Assembly: GCF_963921235.1 (NCBI RefSeq)
Contig: NC_086107.1
Location: forward strand, 97,094,001 to 97,158,000
DNA: 64,000 bases
Source: Mobula hypostoma
Taxonomy: Eukaryota
Direction of reading: 5' to 3'
The translations under genes were made by a program, and so were the position numbers. The notes below the pieces were generated by a model, which was not told the DNA's origin, searched no databases, and saw nothing but the letters and a program-made list of their open reading frames with translations. Shown piece by piece: positions 12,201-61,889 of this stretch. How positions within the stretch are numbered: the first letter of the stretch is position 1; each line of letters opens with the position of its first letter.

Positions 12201-13640
12201 TAGTGAACCTCATGACCAGGATATTGGTTCCCCTCCAGTTTAGGTGCAATCTCTCCTTCTGATACAGATCACTCCTTCCTCAGAAGAAGTTCTAATGATC
12301 CAAGAACCTGAAACCCTGCCCCCTTCACCAGTTCCTCAGCCACTCATTCTTCTGTACTATCATCCTGTTCCTGCCCTGACTAGCACTTGGCACTGGGATT
12401 AATCCAGAGATGACTACCTTGGAGATCCTGCCCTTCAGTCTCTTTCCTAACTCCCTATGCTCTCTGCATAGGACCTCTTCCCCCTTTCTACCTATGGCGG
12501 GAGGAGAGAGAGCAGTGGGCCGTGCGTGCGCAGCCCTCCGGTGAAAAATTATATCGTATCCATTAAATAGGGACCGTGGACAATTCTGATTTGATGGAGA
12601 CAGACGTGAAAACACAGAGGAACAGCTGGAGAAATTTCTGAAATGCCAGTTCGCTGCTGTTGTTACTGCGCGGTCGGGAATCTTCTGGAGGGAAGGTCTC
12701 AAAATCCCCGGCTTTGCCTGCTATTGGCGACCGAGATTGAGGTTGAATCATTCGGACAGAGAAGGCGCTCAGTACTTGGTGTCGGAGAGCTGAATCGGAG
12801 GCTCGAAGTTTTCGGATGACTCAGAGTCGGACTGTGGTTGGGCATGGCAGGGAGAGTTTTTCTTCCTTCTCCCGTCTGCGTGAGATGTGGGACATTTGAG
12901 AGACTTTGAACTTTTTACTGTGCTCATGGACTTCTTCATCAAGTTATGGTATTGTTGCACTGTTGTAACTATATGTTATAATTATGTGGTTTTTGTTAGT
13001 TTTTTCAGTCTTGGTCCATCCTGTGTTTTGTGATATCACACCGGAGGAAATATTGTGTCATTTCTGAATGCATGCATTACTAAATGACAATAAAAGAGGA
13101 CTGCGTGTCTTCATAATCTAATGTGTACCACAACCCCTGGTTGACCACCTTCCCTCCCACCTCCACTTTGACAATAGTCTGCAGCCATGCTGAGACATTG
13201 AGATGTCCTGAACCTTAGCACCTGGGAGGCAACACACATTCTGGTGCCTCTTGTGCAGCCACAGAATCTCGTGTCCATCTCTCTAACTATCAAGTCTCCT
13301 ATCATTATCGCTCTGCCTGATTTTACCCTTTCTACTGTGCCCTAACAGGTCACCAGCCCCACCCCCCCAACATTATCCAAAGTTGTATATGTTGCAGAGG
13401 GGAGTGGCCACAGAGGAACCCTGCACTGACTGGTTACTCCCCTTACATCTCCAGGTGGTCACCCATATACTTTATTAAGCCTGCACTCTGGGTGTGAGCA
13501 CCTCAATAAAAAGTTCCACCTTGCCAGTCAGGAGCTAAAGTTGGGTGCGCTTCCAGCATTTGTAGTCATCAGGGAGACCATTAGGTACCCTGAAATTCCA
13601 CATCTCGCAGGAGGAGCATGCCACCACCTTAACTGCTATC
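9248..13640 (-). mobile_element. Near full-length degenerate CR1 LINE (ORF1 esterase, APE endonuclease, RT)
   Basis: ORF1 SGNH-like IGDLIVR and SKVVISGLIPVP; endonuclease LKCVYFNVGRIMGKGDELRAWISTWNYDVAAITEIWL and PTRGGAVLNLVL; RT QGSVLGPLLF and WAEKWQMEFNPDKCEVLHF. Many stops and frameshifts. Confidence 0.9.
12496..13122 (+). mobile_element. Family A non-autonomous retroelement, full length (~627 bp), inserted in CR1 ORF1
   Basis: Starts GGCGGGAGGAGAG, ends AATAAAAGAGGACTGCGTGTCTTCATAATCTAAT; colinear with 44837-45460. Confidence 0.9.
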
Positions 13641-13647
13641 CTTCCTA

Positions 13648-13814
13648 ACAGCATCTATGGAAAAGAGCACAGTTGATGTTTTGGGCCGAGATGCTTTATC
13701 AAGACAGAAACGTCAACTATACTCTTTTCCATTGATGCTGCCTGGCCTGATGAGTTCTTCCAGCATTTTGTGTGTCGTTGCTTGGCTTTCCAGCATCTGC
13801 AGATTTTCTTTGCT
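13648..13814. mobile_element. Short inverted PLE pseudo-LTR insertion
   Basis: CAGCATCTATGGAAAAGAG is inverted by CTCTTTTCCATTGATGCTG; flanked by TGCTATCCTTCCTA/TGCCATCCTTCCTA (14-bp TSD, 1 mismatch). Confidence 0.75.
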
Positions 13815-14139
13815 TGCCATCCTTCCTACACTGATTTACAGTCAACGATAAAATGCTTACCTGTTCTTACCTGTGCCTTCTCTCTGAAGTTTTCATGCTC
13901 ACCTAGGTCACTTACTCAGCCTCTTCTCGCTGAGCTTGTTATACATTTGGTTCTAACTTCTGAAGCTTAAGTACACACTTGATCCTCTCATTGAAATCAC
14001 TGATTCTGATTGTGAAGAGCTGTCTTCAGCACTAATCCTTGCATCCTGAGCCTGCTCCCTGCTTTTACCCATCAATGAGTACTCAATCAATGAAAATACC
14101 ACCAACATCATGCACTTTAATTATGTTTAGTAGTTTCAC

Positions 14140-14380: not shown

Positions 14381-15627
14381 CAAATTATTTGCCCTGATTT
14401 ATTTGACTAGTTGCAACCTCAAAAAGAAAATCAAGCAGATTTGTCAAACATGATTTTCCTTTCAAAAATCCATGTTGGCTTTGCCTAATCCTATAATTAA
14501 TGTCTCAGTGCCCTGCTGTGCTGGCTTACTTTCACTGCAGTTTGTGGGGGGCTTATCGTATGCAAATCTGGTGAGCAGCAAGCTGAAACTTTGAGTTCTG
14601 TTTGAATGTTGTCGTGGGGTGGGGGATTGTCAGCTCCCGGCATCATCTCCAATGTCCTGCTGTAGGAATGCAAATTTGAAACTGCGTTGAGTTTCACCGT
14701 GCAGTGCGGGGGGAAAATAGTTGCTTAATGACAGTGGACTTCTTTCCCATTAGTCAATCAAACAATTCACTTGGCTTTGTGATTTTATTCACTGCCTGTC
14801 AAAGTAATAAAAGTAATTGACAGGAAATGCATTACACTACGCAGTATCATCAGTATTGTCAATTCCAAGGTTGCTATATCTGTAACCATGCATGATATTT
14901 CAGTCTAAACAAACCCCCCTCTTGTTTCCTTTAACTTTCCTTCTCCTACATGCTTCTTCTACCATTCCTCCATCTTGCAACTATTTCTCTCCCTCTATCC
15001 CAAAATTCTCCTGGCCACAAGTTTTGTTTGGCTCCCTGTTCCTTTGTGCCTCTTTTCTTTCACTTGCCTTGGGCCAGTGAATCCTCCAATGTGTTTCAAT
15101 TGTGAGCGGCAGCTCATTATTGGAAAGTTACGGCAGAAACGACACTTAAATCGTGGAGATCCACAGCTCAGGATTATTGCATTTACTTGGTGTGAAAACA
15201 ACATCACTCATCAAATGATGAGAGCTCATTTTCAGCTCAATTTCACACTGCAAGCTCGATGGATATGTAAATAGGAGGGATCCAAGGATTTCTGTCAAGT
15301 TCCTAATCTAAATTTTCTCCATGAAAAACTATGAATAATCTAAAGACCAGAAATAGTGGCTCTGTTTGCTTGTGTGGAGGGGCCAACAAACGCAGGCTCC
15401 GTTCCATGGACTAGGATGGTGAGGACCAATGTCAGAGGCTCTTCCCTGATACCCTCACATGGCATGGATTTACCCCATTCTGATTTAGACTCCCCACCAA
15501 CTCTTCTCCCTTGCTACCTGAGTTTCAACGCAAACACGAGGAAATCTGCAGATGCTGGAATTTCAAGCAACACACATAAAAGTTGCTGGTGAACGCAGCA
15601 GGGCAGGCAGCATCTCTAGGAAGAGGT

Positions 15628-15667
15628 ACAGTCGACGTTTCGGGCTGAGACCCTTCGTCAGGACTAA
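15628..15667 (-). ncRNA. Minimal type I hammerhead ribozyme motif
   Basis: Reverse complement reads TTAGTC-CTGACGA-AGGGTCTCAGCCC-GAAA-CG-TC-GACTGT: intact core, stem I AGTC/GACT, stem II GGG/CCC. Confidence 0.75.
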
Positions 15668-15790
15668 CTGAAAGAAGAGCTAGTAAGAGATATGAAAGTG
15701 GGAGGGGGAGTCCCCCTCCCATCTTCTCCTATCATTTCGGATCTCCCCCTCCCCTCCCACTTTCTAATCTCTTACTAGATCTTCTTTCAG

Positions 15791-15830
15791 TTAGTCCTGA
15801 TGAAGGGTTTCGGCCCGAAACGTCGACTGT
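15791..15830 (+). ncRNA. Minimal type I hammerhead ribozyme motif
   Basis: TTAGTC-CTGATGA(15797-15803)-AGGGTTTCGGCCC-GAAA(15817-15820)-CG-TC-GACTGT; predicted cleavage after C15824. Confidence 0.8.
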
Positions 15831-17274
15831 ACCTCTTCCTAGGGATGCCGCCTGGCCTGCTGCGTTCACCAGCAACTTTTATATGTGTTGCCTGAGTTTC
15901 AAACTGGCCTGAGGGAAATTGACCCCCATGGATCAACAGTGAGACTGGCCACGATTGCCCCTTTGCCCATATTTCTCATCATTAGGACATGGCATCCAAA
16001 GAATAACAGTAGCTTGCATTTATACAGCAGCACTCATGTCATGAAATACCCCAGGATTGTTCACAAGAGAACTAGAGATTGAACAACAGCCACTCATAGT
16101 TTGGAGGTGAAAAGCAGCGGTATCTTCACCCAGGTCGATGAGAGAGCTTTAAAAATTGGCGCTTTGTAGCTGTTTTTTGGAGTTTGAACAACGACCAATT
16201 GGAGTTCAGGATTCATTCACAAGATCAAATAAAAATAAGGCAGGGGCAAGTGGAGTGGTTATTGTTGGAGTGCAGCAGTGTTAGAGTGGAGGGATTTTTG
16301 GCTTTGGCTCAACAGGCATGCGTGACGTAAGTAACTGATAAGCTTTCTCTTGTTCATTCTTCATCTGTAAGTGTAGAGATAAGGTAATAAGAATGGCTCC
16401 AGGGCTGTGCTATGTCCTTTGTGTGAGAGGTAAGAATTCTGGAAGATCTCTAGCTTCCTGGATTACCATGTCTGCATCAGGAGCACCAAGCTGCAGGTCC
16501 TCAGAGTTAAGGAACTGAAGCTTCAACTCGATGATCTTCAGCTCACAGGGGAAATGATAGTTAGGAGCTACAAGGAGGTAATCAGCCCTAGGTTGCAGGA
16601 GGTAGGTGGATGGGTGACTGTCAGGAGAGGGAAGGGAAATAAACAACAGGTACAGAGTGCCCCTATGGCCACTTCCCTCATTAATATATATACCACTTAG
16701 ATGCTGTTGGGGGCAATGACCTACCTGGAGTTGGGGGGGAGCCACAGTGACCAGGTTTCTCTGGCACTGAGTCTGGCACTGTAGCTCAGAAGGTAAAGGG
16801 CCAGAGGAGGAATGTAATGATGACTGGAGATTCCATAGTGAAAGGAGCAGATAGGAGAGTTGGTAGACCCAGATGGTATGTTGCCTCCCAGGTGCTAGAG
16901 ACAGAGATGTCTCAGGTCGGGTCCGTGACATTCTAAAGGGGAAGGGTGAGCAGCCAGATATCTTGGTACACGTTGATACCAACAAAAGAGAGGAGGTCCT
17001 AAAGAGCAAATTTAGAGAGCTAGGTAGAAAGCTAAAACACAGGACCTCCAGGGTAACAATCTCTGGAGCCACATGCCAGTGAGGGCAAGATCAGGATTAT
17101 TTGGCAGATACAGCTGCTACATTAGTGCAGGGGGCAGGGTTTCAGTTTTAGGCATCACTGAGATCTCTTTGGGTAAGATATGACCTATACAAAAGGGACA
17201 GACATCACCTGAACCCAAGGAGGACTAATATCCTTGTGGGCAGGTGTTCTAGAGCTGTCGGGGAGTGCTTAACT

Positions 17275-36265: not shown

Positions 36266-36561
36266 TTCCTACCCTAACCCATTTTGTTTTCCCAGTCACG
36301 TTAATTGTCCTTGGATTCTACCATTGATCTACACATTGGCCATTAATTCACAATGGCCAATTACCAGTTTTGTGAGGAACCAGAGCAGCTGGAGGAATGG
36401 CATGTGGGTGCAGCGAGAACGGGCATGTACCAGAGAGTCAGTGCAGGATAGACCCCAGGTCACTGACACAGTGAGCTGCACCTTTACCAGCTGCACTGCT
36501 ATGCTGCTCAGTGTTGTTAGATTTCCTGCCTTTCTCATCAGCATATTTCACACAGATCATA

Positions 36562-37072
36562 ACCACAAGAGATTCTGCAGATGCTGTAAATCCAAAGCAA
36601 CACACACAAAATGCTGGAGGAACTCAGCAAGTCAGGCAGCATCTATGGAAAAGAGTAAACAGTCGACATTTTTGGCCAAGACCCTTCAGCAGAACTGGGG
36701 AAAATGATGAGAAGTCAGAGCAGGAAGGTGGGGGGGGGGTTGGGGGGAGAGGAGGAAGAAGTACAAGGTGGTGAAGCTGGGGGGGGGAGTGGTGGTGAAG
36801 TAAAGAACTGGGAAGTTGGTAAAAGAGATAAAGGGCTGGAGAAGGGGGAATCTGACAGGAGAAGGTAGAAGGCCATGGAAGAAGGGGAAGGGGAAGCAGC
36901 CAGGTAGGTAAGGAGATGAGAGAGGGAGGTGGGAATGGGGGAATGGTGAAGGGTGGAGGCAATTATCAGAAGTTCGAGAAATCGATGTTTCAACCCGAAA
37001 CATCAGCTGTTTACTCTTTTCCACAGATGCTGCCTGGCCTGCTGAGTTCCACCAGCGTTTTGTGTACATTGC
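36562..37072. mobile_element. Inverted PLE pseudo-LTR pair (long minus arm, short plus arm)
   Basis: 36605-36680 is inverted by 36992-37065 (GCAGCATCTATGGAAAAGAGTAAACAG / CTGTTTACTCTTTTCCACAGATGCTGC). Confidence 0.75.
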
Positions 37073-38245
37073 GTTAACTTTGTGAAACGCAGGGATAAGG
37101 AGTTGCACATTACAGCCACTTTCTGAATAAAGAGGTTTCTCCCCAGGTCCATATTAGATTCATTAGTGACAGACTTCTATCAATGAACTCCACATTTGCT
37201 CTTCTCCTTGAATAGAAGTGTTCTTGATAAAATCGGTATAAAATAATGCAGAAGAGGAAAATATGAAATTAAAACAGATGATACTGGAAATGCCCGGTAG
37301 GGCAGGCATTATCTGAAGAGGGAAATATCAGTTATTGAGTTGGATCAATAATCTGATTTTATGTTGGCCCAACACCTCTACTTGCCTTGAGCAGAATGCC
37401 TGGTGGCTTACTTCTCAGAAATTCCCTTTGCTCTTCTTACAGTCATTCCCAATGGAGCGGATGGGGATGTGGGCAGACCAAAGGAGAAATGGAGCACACC
37501 GTACTCCCACAGGAGAATGTTAATACAATGGCAAAAGCAGAGCTAATTATATTTCTCTATCTATTGTACCAGTAAAGAAATGAGACCTGAACTAAATCAA
37601 CACAACTGATGCTGCCGAGACTATAAGGGGATCAATTTAAGTAGCTGGACAGATCATTGGTTCCAGGGAGAATGTTGGTCTCATTATGATCTGTAATGTA
37701 CTGGAGGATCTGTGGTTCTGAATGAAATGTTCTGAACATTAGGCTTCATTTTCTTTCTCATAAAGCAGGATTTTCATTTCTCGGGCAATAAACTAGTGTC
37801 TGCTAAATGTCAGCATAAGGATTTGGAATTATTCAAAGACCATTTGTTTCAGGTTTACACGTACAGAACAAGTCTGATTTTTAGCTATAACCTCAATCTA
37901 CACAATGATTATGTTGCAAGCTGTGTTAAGATTTGCACTTGAAGTCTCTTCCTTCACTGGGATCAACGCTACATCGAATGTTTAGTGAGGATTGCACATA
38001 ACCCTTGAGATTACTCTGGCACCAGACCCCAATTCTTTCTCTGCTCCATCAATGTTGCCTCCAGAACTGGGGCACAGCCTGTCAATTTCATCAGCTTCAC
38101 TACCATCACCTTCCCCTCCTTCAAATTCCAACATTTATGGAACATTTCCAACATCCTCTCTCTCCTTTCTTGATCTTCCTGCCTCCATTTCAGGAGACAA
38201 ACCATCCGGCGACATTTGCTATAAACCCACTGATTCCCACAGCTA

Positions 38246-47964: not shown

Positions 47965-48860
47965 TGTCACGAGCACGGACTCTGTTGCTCAGTCTGCAGT
48001 TAAGTCTGCATGCCCTCGTAGGACGACAACAGAAAAGAATCGACGATCATGCTCATGAGTATGAACATTCGAGCCAGTTAGGGTTTCCTTGCAATTGTGC
48101 TTAACCCCTTTCCTTTCGTTTCAGTCTTGTCAGGACTTGACCAAAACACAATGCTCCTTGTTTACCTCAGAGCATGCTTCAGAAAGGTCACAATTTAGTT
48201 TGACCCTATCAAAGAGCAATGTTAATTTTATATTAAATTAGTGCTTCTGAGCTACAGTGATGGCGTTAGATTCTAGTTTGAGTTTTACTGTAGTTAGCAG
48301 CTCTATTGGCCCAGCAATTATTATTTTCCTTTTGTTCTGCACAGTTCTCATTCACGCTCAATGAAATGTTCATTCCACTTGCGTCTACCCTTCTGCACCT
48401 GGGCCATCACCAAACACTGTGTCAGCAAGACTCGACCATCAGAATTGTCCTAGTGGAGAACGAACAGCTGACCTTGCCCTTGAATTTTGCCGGTCAGCTG
48501 GAGGAGAAGTTAAAGTCAGTGGAGGCTGGGTTGGCAGATGTAGCTTATGCAGTGCGACAACCTACCTCAGAGTGGAAAGCCCAGCCCAAGCTGAAATTTG
48601 CTGGACAGATGGCAGTCTCATCAGCCTCAGCCACTAATGCCCCGATCCTCTTGGTAGCACCTGGAGCCAAACCTCTTACCCAGTACTATTCCTCCCCAGG
48701 GAAAGCCATGGAAGAGTATATCAAGGAAGCATTGGCCTTAGGGTTTATCCATCTGTCAACTTTGTCAGCAGGGACGGGCTTCTTTTTTGTGAGCAAGAAG
48801 GAAGACAAGCTCCATCCCTGCAGTGATTATTGGCCCCTCACAGCGGGTATTGCAATAACC
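47965..48860 (+). mobile_element. Gypsy (Tf1/Sushi-like) remnant: 5' LTR (47965-48424) and deleted gag-pol
   Basis: TGTCACG...TGTGTCA LTR; ORF 48306..48905 contains [43 protein letters not shown], a decayed chromovirus-type RT N-terminus. Confidence 0.8.
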
Positions 48861-49095
48861 GCTATCAATGAAGAAGACCACTGCAAGATTCCTATGGACA
48901 AGTGAAACAGATCAAGCATTCTCAGAACTAAAGCGATGCTTAACCACTCTCCCAGTGCTGCAACACCCAGACCCATGTTGGCTTAGTGTTTGTTCTTATT
49001 AAAACTTGGTGAGCTTTTCATTCCACTTCTGTGTCTGTCCCTCTGCACTTGGGCAATACCGAACGGTGTGTCAGTGTTTAAAAGTGTGTCCCTTG

Positions 49096-51003
49096 TTGAC
49101 ACGGTTTTATCCCCCCTTGTTCAATCCCTTCCTACCTATGTTCGTGACACTTCTCACGCTCTTAAACTTCTCGATGGTTTTAAGTTCCCTGGCCCCCACC
49201 GCTTTATTTTCACCATGGATGTCCAGTCCTTATATACTTCCATCCCCCATCAGGAAGGTCTCAAAGCTCTACGCTTCTTTTTGGATTCCAGACCTAATCA
49301 GTTCCCCTCTACCACCACTCTGCTCTGTCTAGTGGAATTAGTCCTTACTCTTAATAATTTCTCCTTTGGCTCCTCCCATTTCCTCCAAACTAAAGGTGTA
49401 GCTATGGACACCCGTATGGGTCCTAGCTATGCCTGCCTTTTTGTTGGGTTTGTGGAACAATCTATGTTCCGTGCCTATTCTGGTATCTGTCCCCCACTTT
49501 TCCTTCGCTACATCGACGACTGCATTGGTGCTGCTTCCTGCACGCATGCTGAGCTCGTTGACTTCATTAACTTTGCCTCCAACTTTCACCCTGCCCTCAA
49601 ATTTACCTGGTCCATTTCCGACACCTCCCTCCCCTTTCTAGATTTTTCTGTCTCTGTCTCTGGAGACAGCTTATCCACTGATGTCTACTATAAGCCTACT
49701 GACTCTCACAGCTATCTGGACTATTCCTCTTCTCACCCTGTCTCTTGCAAAAATGCCATCCCCTTCTCGCAATTCCTCCGTCTCCGCCGCATCTGCTCTC
49801 AGGATGAGGTTTTTCATTCTAGGACGAGGGAGATGTCTTCCTTTTTTAAAGAAAGGGGCTTCCCTTCCTCCACTATCAACTCTGCTCTTAAACGCATCTC
49901 CCCCATTTCACGTACATCTGCTCTCACTCCATCCTCCCGCCACCCCACTAGGAATAGGGTTCCCCTGGTCATCACCTACCACCCCACCAACCTCCGGGTC
50001 CAACATATTATTCCCCGTAACTTCCGCCACCTCCAACGGGATCCCACGACTAAGTGCATCTTTCCCTCCCCCCCCTCTCTGCATTCCGCAGGGATTGCTC
50101 CCTACACAACTCCCTTGTCCATTCGTCCCCCCCATCCCTCCCTACTGATCTCCCTCCTGGCACTTATCCGTGTAAGCGGAACAAGTGCTACACATGCCCT
50201 TACACTTCCTCCCTTACCACCATTCAGGGCCCCAAACAGTCCTTCCAGGTGAGGCAACACTTCACCTGTGGGTCGACTGGGGTGATATACTGCGTCCGGT
50301 GCTCCTGATGTGGCCTTTTATATATTGGCGAGACCCGACGCAGACTGGGAGACCGCGTTGCTGAACACCTACGCTCTGTCCGCCAGAGAAAGCAAGATCT
50401 CCCAGTGGCCACACATTTTAATTCCACATCCCATTCCCATTCTGACATGTCTATCCACGGCCTCCTCTACTGTAAAGATGAAGCCACACTCAGGTTGGAG
50501 GAACAAGACCTTATATTCCGTCTGGGTAGCCTCCAACCTGATGGCATGAACATTGACTTCTCTAACCTGCTAATGCCCCACTTCCCCCTCGTACCCCATC
50601 TGTTACTTATTTTTATACATACATTCTTTCTCTCACTCTCCTTTTTCTCCCTCTGTCCCTCTGAATAAACCCCTTGCCCATCCTCTGGGTCCCCCCCCAC
50701 CTCCTTGTCTTTCTTCCCGGACCTCCTGTCCCATGATCCTCTCGTATCCCTTTTGCCTATCACCTGTCCAGCTCTTGGCTCCATCCCTCCCCCTCCTGTC
50801 TTCTCCTATCATTTTGGATCTCCCCCTCCCCCTCCAACTTTCAAATCCCTTACTCACTCTTCCTTCAGTTAGTCCTGACGAAGGGTCTCGGCCTGAAACG
50901 TCGACTGCACCTCTTCCCAGAGATGCTGCCTGGCCTGCTGCGTTCACCAGCAAATTTTATGTGTGTTGCTTGAATTTCCAGCATCTGCAGAATTCCTGTT
51001 GTT
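49096..51003 (+). mobile_element. Young 5'-truncated PLE: RT, GIY-YIG endonuclease and pLTR
   Basis: RT motifs FTMDVQSLYTSIPH, QTKGVAMDTRMGPSYA, LRYIDD, YYKPTD; GIY-YIG GVIYCVRCS*CGLLYIGET. One frameshift near 50070 and a stop at 50306-50308. TSD TCCCTTG (49089-49095, 51004-51010). Confidence 0.95.
50869..50908 (+). ncRNA. Minimal type I hammerhead ribozyme motif in the PLE pLTR
   Basis: TTAGTC-CTGACGA(50875-50881)-AGGGTCTCGGCCT-GAAA(50895-50898)-CG-TC-GACTGC; predicted cleavage after C50902. Confidence 0.8.
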
Positions 51004-51194
51004 TCCCTTGATCAGTTTGGTTTTGGCTCAACCAAGGCCAGTGATATTGCTGAAGTTAGTTCCAGGCCAAGTGGAACCGTTATCCGTAGGACAACATCTA
51101 AACAAGCAAAGTGCTTCGAATAGCTGTAAGATAGGATCTAAATCACCGCTGTAAAAGCGGTTAATTGGAGAAACAACGGTTCCAATGGGATGAG

Positions 51195-60080: not shown

Positions 60081-61097
60081 GAACAGAATGCTACAGTACA
60101 GCACTAGAAGAGGCCTTTTGGCCCACAATGCTCTGCCAAACTAATTAAACTAGTTAACAAATGCCTAACTAATCCCCTCTGTCCACACAATGTCCCTCTG
60201 TTCACTGTATTTGCTTATCAAAGAACCTTTTAAACACTTTGATTGTATTTGCCTCCACCACCAACATTGGTAGCAATTCCAGGCACCAGCTCTCTACAAA
60301 AAAAACTTGCCCTCCACCTATTCTTTGATTTCACCTCCTCTCACCTAGTCTGAGGCATCTTGATCCTGGTAAATAGATAATGGCTGTCTATCCCCTCTAT
60401 GCCTCTCATAATCTTATAAGCGTCTCTCAGGTCTCCCTTAAGCCTCTGCCACTCCAGAGAAAACAACCCAAGTTTGTCCAAACTCTCCTTATGTCATTTA
60501 ATCCAGACAGCCTTCTTGTAAACATCTTCTGCACCTTCTCCGAAGCCTCCATATCCTTCTATAATGGGGCAACCAGAATAAAATGCAATACTTCACGTGC
60601 TGTCTTTGCAACATGGCTTTGTGACTCTTGAACTCAGTACCTTGGCTAAGAAAGGTGAAAGCCATATGCCTTATTCACCACCCTATTAACTTGTGCAGCC
60701 ATTTTCAGGGCTGCTATGGACTCGCTGTCTCTGTACATCAACACCATTAAGGGTCTTGCTGCTAACGGTGCATTGTCCCTTTTACATTTGATCTCACAAA
60801 GCGCATCACTCATATGCGCTGGTTCAAGGTCCATCACCTTATATCTGCAACTGATCTATATCTCACTGCATCTTTTGGCAAGCTTCTACATTATCCCACA
60901 ATACCACTAGTCTTTGTACCGTCTGCAAACGTATTAACTAATGCATCCATGTTTTCATCCCAAGTAATTTCTGTCACAAATAACAGGGGTCCCAGCATTG
61001 ATCCCTGCGGAACAAAGCAGTGACAGACCTCCAGCCATAATAAATCCCATTCATCATTGCCCTCTATGTTCTAAGAACCAGCCAAATTTGAATCCAA

Positions 61098-61460
61098 ACA
61101 CGAGGAATTCTGCAGATACTGGAAATTCAAGCAACACACATCAAAGTTGCTGGTGAACACAGCGGGCTAGGCAACATCTCTAGGAAGAGGTACAGTCGAC
61201 TTTTTGGGCCAAGACTCTTCGTCAGGACTAACTAAAAGAAGAGCTAGTAAGAGATTTGGAAGTGGGAGGGGGAGGGGGAGATCCGATATGATAGGAGAAG
61301 ACAGGGGGGGAGGGATCGGATCTCCCCCTCTCCCTCCCACTTTCAAATCTCTTACTAGCTTTTCTTTCAGTTAGTCCTGACGAAGGGTCTCGGCCCGAAA
61401 CGTCGACTGTACCTCTTCCTAGAGATGCTGCCTGGCCTGCTGCGTTCACCAGCAACTTTG
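61098..61460. mobile_element. Palindromic PLE pseudo-LTR mini-element
   Basis: Inverted pLTR arms; TSD AAATTTGAATCCAA/AAAGTTGAATCCAA (61084-61097, 61461-61474). Confidence 0.9.
61371..61410 (+). ncRNA. Minimal type I hammerhead ribozyme motif
   Basis: TTAGTC-CTGACGA-AGGGTCTCGGCCC-GAAA-CG-TC-GACTGT; the minus-arm partner (61192-61231) has lost GAAAC. Confidence 0.8.
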
Positions 61461-61889
61461 AAAGTTGAATCCAAGCCTCTTAACCTTCTGGATGAGCCTA
61501 CAGTGAGGGATCTTGTTAAACATCTTCCTAAAATCTAAGTAGATAGCGTCCACAGCTCTACTTTCAATCAGATAATCTGCTCAGATCCAAGTCATTGATA
61601 ATCTAATTTTGGGCAATCCTTGGTGGACCATCCATCAGCTTTCCTGCACTCGCATACGAATGGCCGAACGGAGCTGAGCAGATGAATGATTCCTCTCCTA
61701 ATGTCACAATTGCTAGAACGGGTGTTGGACAAGCTGTTGCTGGCAGAGAAATATAGTTTGAGAAACAAGTTTTAACATTGTTCCTTTGCCGAGAATTAGG
61801 TCATCTCCCATTTATTTAACCATGTACATGTCTGACGTACTGTGGCTGAATCAATACCCAACCCAAATGTGTTGCGTATACCCTCCAAA

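Follow-up and report, generated by a model that had tools for sequence, protein, structure and literature searches.

The palindromic insert at 15.5 kb of the window (the whole stretch of DNA analysed here, 64,000 nucleotides) very probably goes back to one insertion, dead on arrival, by an endonuclease-bearing Penelope-like element (PLE); both of its arms are truncated, and its hammerhead motifs would be passengers. One event produced the locus, the two arms lie head to head, a tail is found on one arm, and the insert has decayed at the neutral rate. This layout is the published typical form of insertion and not that of a special element; the motif has likewise been published.

Structure and age of the 15.5-kb insert

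The locus has the following features (coordinates of the window).

15517 to 15528, plus strand: left copy of the TSD, CCTGAGTTTCAA; exact repeat, empty site in organism C
15529 to 15531: CGC, three bases between the TSD and the element end; the alignment to the parent stops at 15532
15532 to 15710, minus strand: left arm, covering the final 179 nt of the element, 3' end leftward; 91% identity over 179 nt to 50826 to 51004
15532 to 15567, minus strand: Penelope "tail," 36 nt, left arm only (from alignments)
15630 to 15665, minus strand: minimal type I hammerhead of the left arm; core intact, one loop II change, predicted cut after 15634
15699 to 15721: central junction, a perfect 11-bp palindrome with the single base 15710 in its middle, from self-comparison and parent alignment
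15711 to 15890, plus strand: right arm, element -217 to -37, tail-less, 3' end rightward (from alignments)
15793 to 15828, plus strand: minimal type I hammerhead of the right arm; core intact, N7 and loop II changes, predicted cut after 15824
15891 to 15902, plus strand: right copy of the TSD; in register with the tail start, 9/12 positions identical

The insert is 362 bp long (15529 to 15890) and lies between CCTGAGTTTCAA at 15517 to 15528 and an identical copy at 15891 to 15902 (12 bp, zero mismatches). Contigs were compared over 14900 to 16500 in 4 of 24 runs. In organism C (run X9), a single 1323-nt contig joined 15516 straight to 15891, covering 14903 to 15516 and then 15891 to 16254 without a gap (611 and 364 letters either side); it had no insert and carried the 12-mer once. 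Because this contig shows the empty site, the 12-mer is a true TSD, and the preliminary description of a 362-bp insert of two inverted pLTR 3' ends within a perfect 12-bp TSD was borne out. The CGC next to the left TSD copy is either a templated extension or an untemplated addition. Contigs from the window's own organism matched both outer junctions with zero differences, reaching 24 to 25 letters into the insert. Both outer junctions were also seen in organism B (run X5), with 24 to 26 letters inside the insert and a bridging rule of 31; judging from these contigs, the insert is likely present in organism B. The flanks diverged from the window by 1.6% in organism B and by 6.7% in organism C. 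Together, the flank divergence and the empty site suggest that the insertion postdates the split from organism C and probably predates the split from organism B. A second repeat, of lower copy number, starts in 16090 to 16500, where depth rose from ~16090 in three DNA or unlabelled runs and from ~16200 in a fourth run.

Given these contigs, it is barely credible that the palindrome reflects two independent insertions at one spot or a fold-back introduced by assembly. Repeated hits would be easier to accept in a very abundant family such as this one (run X2 yielded 114,364 records, a figure that does not measure copy number), which may also prefer targets similar to its own sequence; however, a single TSD spans both arms, and the empty site of organism C has neither. 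An artefact is opposed by the arms themselves, which do not span the same extent and disagree at 11 of 145 positions, as well as by the same-organism contigs that cross both outer junctions.

Alignment to a long copy of the element (see below) placed the 5' sides of the arms in the centre and the 3' ends outward, the orientation first proposed. Over 150 nt each (15558 to 15707 and 15751 to 15900), the arms were 91% complementary. In element coordinates that count back from the 3' terminus of the long copy, the left arm runs from -179 to -1 and the right arm from -217 to -37 (local alignment of the right arm extends to -27 solely through the likeness of the TSD to the tail), leaving the arms unequal, with a 36-nt tail on the left only and ~38 nt of extra 5' sequence on the right only. 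Both arms start in one register of a pyrimidine repeat, of which the parent has two copies spaced by 39 nt. Each strand folds as one long hairpin (about -270 to -278 kcal/mol; z ~ -27).

Some further regularities were observed at the arm ends. In all four young arms, the 5' end (15710, 15711, and 61316 to 61320) lay inside one ~45-nt segment of the element (-225 to -179), in or beside pyrimidine tracts; these clustered ends may mark an RT pause region or an RNA start. Two of the four tail-less arms (ending at 15890 and ~37074) stop at one element position, the tail boundary. In the young family, a GTGTT-like motif precedes both start sites.

The source element and related pairs in the window

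Four further loci of the window are needed for comparison.

13638 to 13828: older pair, related subfamily; 10-bp TSD, right-arm tail only
36561 to 37075: older pair, related subfamily; tail confined to the left arm
49096 to 51004, plus strand: long copy, 5'-truncated, of the parent type, with an RT frame, GIY-YIG, and a 3' end with hammerhead and tail
61088 to 61474: second young pair, same family; 8- to 10-bp TSD, left-arm tail only, different centre, left hammerhead broken

By sequence comparison, the arms appear to derive from an endonuclease-bearing PLE with an RT plus a GIY-YIG domain at the C terminus. The long copy was 88 to 91% identical to the arms, in agreement with the Penelope pLTR origin first assigned to them. 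Its RT frame matched RVT_1 below the cut-off (E = 0.0088), and its GIY-YIG region fell 0.1 bit short (E = 0.00014; 22.5 bits versus a cut-off of 22.6), lying in a different frame from the RT and containing one in-frame stop. Atlas neighbours of the RT frame, at 0.97, carry PF26215 and PF00078. An RT followed by GIY-YIG is the canonical order of an endonuclease-bearing PLE. The family presumably belongs to the Penelope/Poseidon clade, which it resembles, and its host is presumably a cartilaginous fish. The long copy (49089 to 51010) has a possible 7-bp TSD, an open RT frame, and a frame change before GIY-YIG, and it stands without an inverted partner. Beside it, a 203-aa minus-strand frame (48294 to 48905) may be a fragment of an LTR-retrotransposon pol, which it resembles.

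The terminal module occurred at 6 loci in the window, 4 of which were head-to-head pairs (at 13.6, 15.5, 36.5, and 61.1 kb). The tail was confined to one arm in every pair, and a TSD (10 to 12 bp) flanked three of them; the TSD search found none for the 36.5-kb pair or for the single copy at 35 kb. Across five young arms, 134 columns were common and 32 of these varied. Thirty-one of the 32 were private to one arm, and the sole exception grouped both arms of the 61.1-kb pair, which share a variant base missing from the other three young arms. At the right junction of the 61.1-kb pair, we observed a small snap-back, CAACTTT-G-AAAGTTG, running into the TSD. The arms of the 13.6-kb pair overlap by just ~33 nt, and its centre lies within the hammerhead region.

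All four pairs in the window had distinct centres. In family contigs, we counted at least 635 distinct joints; each of the 15 given in detail rested on no more than 7 contigs per run. Many joints came from other subfamilies, the contigs collapse identical copies, and the centre of the 15.5-kb locus itself was not among the joints reported. This diversity, together with the predominance of variable columns private to one arm, argues against a non-autonomous, retrozyme- or MITE-like palindrome that was transcribed and reinserted whole, which we regard as very unlikely. Such a unit would be served by the terminal sequence bindable by RT that both ends retain, and pLTRs were sufficient for mobilisation in trans in a rotifer according to the part of PMC3846280 considered here. 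Some other joints also reached contig depths of ~230 to 260, far above the 11 of the unique flanks, and given these depths small groups of copies with a common centre are possible. Pattern scans for further copies in metagenome, viral, and prokaryote genome contigs found none.

The comparison with retrozymes gave the same outcome. Active non-LTR retrozymes of animals are defined, in 10.64898/2026.07.22.740005, as tandems with consecutive hammerheads. The insert resembles them in being non-coding, PLE-derived, of similar size, and equipped with a type I hammerhead. However, retrozymes are head-to-tail tandems in which each unit carries a sense hammerhead, whereas the locus consists of a lone inverted pair whose strands each hold a single sense motif. 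The earlier proposal of a retrozyme-like unit found no support, given the missing tandem and the four different centres.

Priming of the two arms

Inverted-pLTR insertions have been described before, in the following respects within the portions of the reports drawn on here. Arkhipova et al. (2013; PMC3846280) found an insert with a 9-bp TSD (8 to 10 bp in the rotifer accounts) that was completed by an inverted pLTR, a tail of 31 bp confined to one of the inverted pLTRs, junction palindromes, and a head-to-head arrangement as the most frequent one. The same scheme is given as typical, with a one-sided tail of 30 to 40 bp, by Craig et al. (2021; PMC8557442), and Schostak et al. (2008; PMC2377424) reported inverted-pLTR insertions of endonuclease-bearing PLEs. 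The present insert resembles the Pen2a_Av type in its head-to-head inverted termini within one TSD, its one-arm tail of 30 to 40 bp, the palindrome at its inverted junction, and its strong 5' truncation. Unlike that type, it has no ORF on either arm and looks like a small palindrome, and its TSD is 12 bp long versus 8 to 10 bp in the rotifer.

We propose the following course of events. The target would have been cut with a 12-nt stagger that left 3' overhangs. From the top-strand end, cDNA would have been primed at a distal RNA start, yielding the left arm with its tail, while the bottom-strand end, helped by partial base pairing to the RNA, would have primed at a proximal start 36 nt inside and so yielded the right arm, which has no tail. 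After ~180 nt, each cDNA would have halted in the pyrimidine repeat, and the two would then have been joined end to end. The hammerheads would be passengers, and in read-through RNA each motif would be locked within a 150-bp hairpin. Within the single-insertion reading, we infer with some confidence that two separate priming events took place, from the staggered cut through end joining. This course is favoured because each arm holds sequence missing from the other. The arms were non-nested, each with private sequence, in 2 of the 4 pairs (15.5 and 13.6 kb), so that neither arm is a plain copy of the other at these loci. On the same evidence, the suggestion that pLTR RNA primed both DNA ends now stands as probable.

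Biochemical work on Poseidon PAc of Anolis carolinensis (Frangieh et al., 2024; PMC11167929) is consistent with this course. In purified form, the anole enzyme nicks the two strands and extends them, uses two starts that bound the tail, and does not depend on hammerhead cleavage. The two RT starts bounding the tail, the extension of both target strands, and the uncut RNA template all fit the anatomy of the 15.5-kb locus. PAc differs in starting homology-free and in preferring AT-rich targets, whereas the present target is similar to RNA sequence around the proximal start.

The perfect 11-bp palindrome argues against the two-primer step, since PMC3846280, in the part considered, interprets junction palindromes as self-priming. 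Alternatively, a tail-primed cDNA could have primed itself at the centre, copied itself, and been captured by the other target end via the 9/12 likeness, with an additional slip between the pyrimidine repeats, later or concurrent, that removed ~39 nt from the left arm. The perfect palindrome with its 1-nt loop and the start of both arms in one repeat register are as expected of such a fold-back, as is the nesting of the tail-less arm within the tailed arm in 2 of the 4 pairs (36.5 and 61.1 kb). The variant shared by the two arms at 61.1 kb and absent from three other arms points the same way, but it is equally compatible with two transcripts of one source. Moreover, a fold-back requires an extra deletion at 15.5 kb and another at 13.6 kb, in a pair whose tail-less arm extends further in the 5' direction. 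We therefore consider it possible but doubtful. It competes solely with the two-primer step and otherwise assumes the same ordinary insertion.

In twin priming of L1, both target overhangs prime cDNA, the second via short pairing with the RNA, and an inversion within one TSD results. The two parts then copy adjacent, largely non-overlapping stretches of one RNA. The 15.5-kb insert is unlike such a product in that both of its arms copy one stretch, and it follows that either two templates or a fold-back is needed.

The likeness of the target to the tail bears on how the second template would be engaged. The preliminary description had noted that the target resembles the continuation of the pLTR, which held in part: the TSD matched the tail start in register at 9/12 positions in two window copies, but at 8/12 in the left arm itself, and the first base of the target as quoted there (T at 15511) was C in organisms B and C. 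A 9/12 match was reached by 92 of 118,790 control 12-mers at fixed register and by 671 of 16,974 (0.04) at any register in the last 70 nt. The 61.1-kb TSD starts with TTGAAT like the tail, offset by a small rearrangement, and the 13.6-kb TSD showed no likeness to the tail start. In the parts consulted of PMC11167929, the RNA sites at which synthesis started in vitro had no homology to the cut DNA, an observation that speaks against a requirement for pairing. We found no description of a TSD bias toward the tail start in the portions of the literature consulted, and we do not claim that none exists. The 9/12 match, the TTGAAT at 61.1 kb, and the non-nested arms in 2 of the 4 pairs hint at integration from two templates by a dimeric enzyme, in which the distal tail start would be used without homology and the proximal start via pairing of the 3' overhang with the tail. 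We advance this only tentatively and think it rather unlikely. If true, the two-template step would explain both the one-sided tail and the head-to-head layout, and it predicts a genome-wide bias of TSDs toward the tail start.

Hammerhead motifs, hairpin, and decay

An intact minimal hammerhead core had been claimed for both arms, and our own minimal hammerhead descriptor, combined with the five-arm comparison, recovered it in each (15793 to 15828, plus; 15665 to 15630, minus). Both arms have the CUGANGA and GAAA core, a cleavage triplet, stems I and II, and a palindromic remnant of stem III. The descriptor matched 4 sites in the window, every one in the Penelope family, versus 2 in 20 Markov-resampled windows. 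Covariance models, the check that had been suggested, did not confirm the motif: Rfam returned no hammerhead for the window when gathering scores were applied, and with the limit relaxed to E = 10 over 15400 to 16000, all 39 matches were to models other than hammerheads. Such a miss would be expected for a motif without a real stem III. Matches to microRNA families in Rfam all lay far below gathering scores and were dismissed as generic hairpin matches.

The motifs resemble the min-HHR of Cervera and De la Pena (PMC4209133) in the short stem I, the bulged base before stem II, the palindromic 15.2-16.2, and the absence of a real stem III. They differ from those of Schistosoma in stem II (3 to 4 bp here versus 7 to 8 bp) and in being predicted from sequence. 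In that study, a single minimal motif gave no detectable cleavage and dimers gave low cleavage, and dual motifs on opposite strands, 100 to 700 bp apart, were described in Schistosoma. The anole hammerhead motif required protein, according to the part of PMC11167929 considered. We rejected the idea that the arm ends are linked to hammerhead cleavage: the arms start 77 and 114 nt upstream of the predicted cut and read through it, so the templates were uncleaved there.

With the 5' sides in the centre, the antisense arm is transcribed before the motif on both strands. When stems I and II were imposed, with the core kept open, on an RNA prefix ending just past the motif, the penalty was 58.6 kcal/mol on the plus strand and 47.2 kcal/mol on the minus strand, compared to 4.1 and 6.5 kcal/mol for single arms (secondary structure only). 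Each strand holds one sense motif and no dimer partner on the same strand. The folds agree with the earlier view that any transcript across the site would contain one ribozyme and its antisense in a ~150-bp hairpin. However, with the antisense arm first, a cost of 47 to 59 kcal/mol, and no dimer partner, a switch or retrozyme role is unlikely; the proposed cleavage switch thus found no support, and the modeled hairpin should block the ribozyme rather than switch it. According to the same folds, dsRNA would form if the site were transcribed. Run X23, which we guess to be RNA, held 6528 family records and no cover on the unique flanks, and it is evidence neither way.

At the 15.5-kb locus, 9 private changes in 268 positions amount to 3.4% (95% interval, 1.5 to 6.3%), equal to the flank rate of 3.4% per lineage (organisms A versus C). 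The motifs had not changed more slowly than the remainder (3/72 versus 6/196 outside; P = 0.71). These rates suggest that the insert decays neutrally. All 3 changes within the motifs fell at tolerated positions, and both 30-nt critical sets were unchanged, an outcome with a chance of ~0.13 if decay is uniform and a smaller one once CpG decay is given weight; this pattern counts against the neutral-passenger reading, although the locus was picked for intactness and its sister pair has one broken motif. A co-opted regulatory RNA element, acting as a cleavage switch or selected because it supplies dsRNA, small RNA, or a substrate for editing, could also account for two intact cores in an insertion apparently common to organisms A and B, and its 150-bp hairpin would form on either strand. 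Decay at the flank rate with no sign of arm homogenisation, the antisense arm lying before the motif on both strands, and the missing cis dimer partner nevertheless make co-option highly improbable. Passenger hammerheads in a single truncated insertion remain the preferred reading.

The single locus carries little weight, being a typical decaying Penelope insertion, and its value is as material. The origin of inverted Penelope ends and of the one-sided tail is called unresolved in the parts of PMC8557442 and PMC11167929 considered. A genome with four pairs in 64 kb, along with empty sites in relatives, affords a very large natural sample for deciding between the two-primer step and the fold-back. 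Finally, such stumps call for caution in annotation, as they mimic MITEs and score as microRNA-like hairpins.
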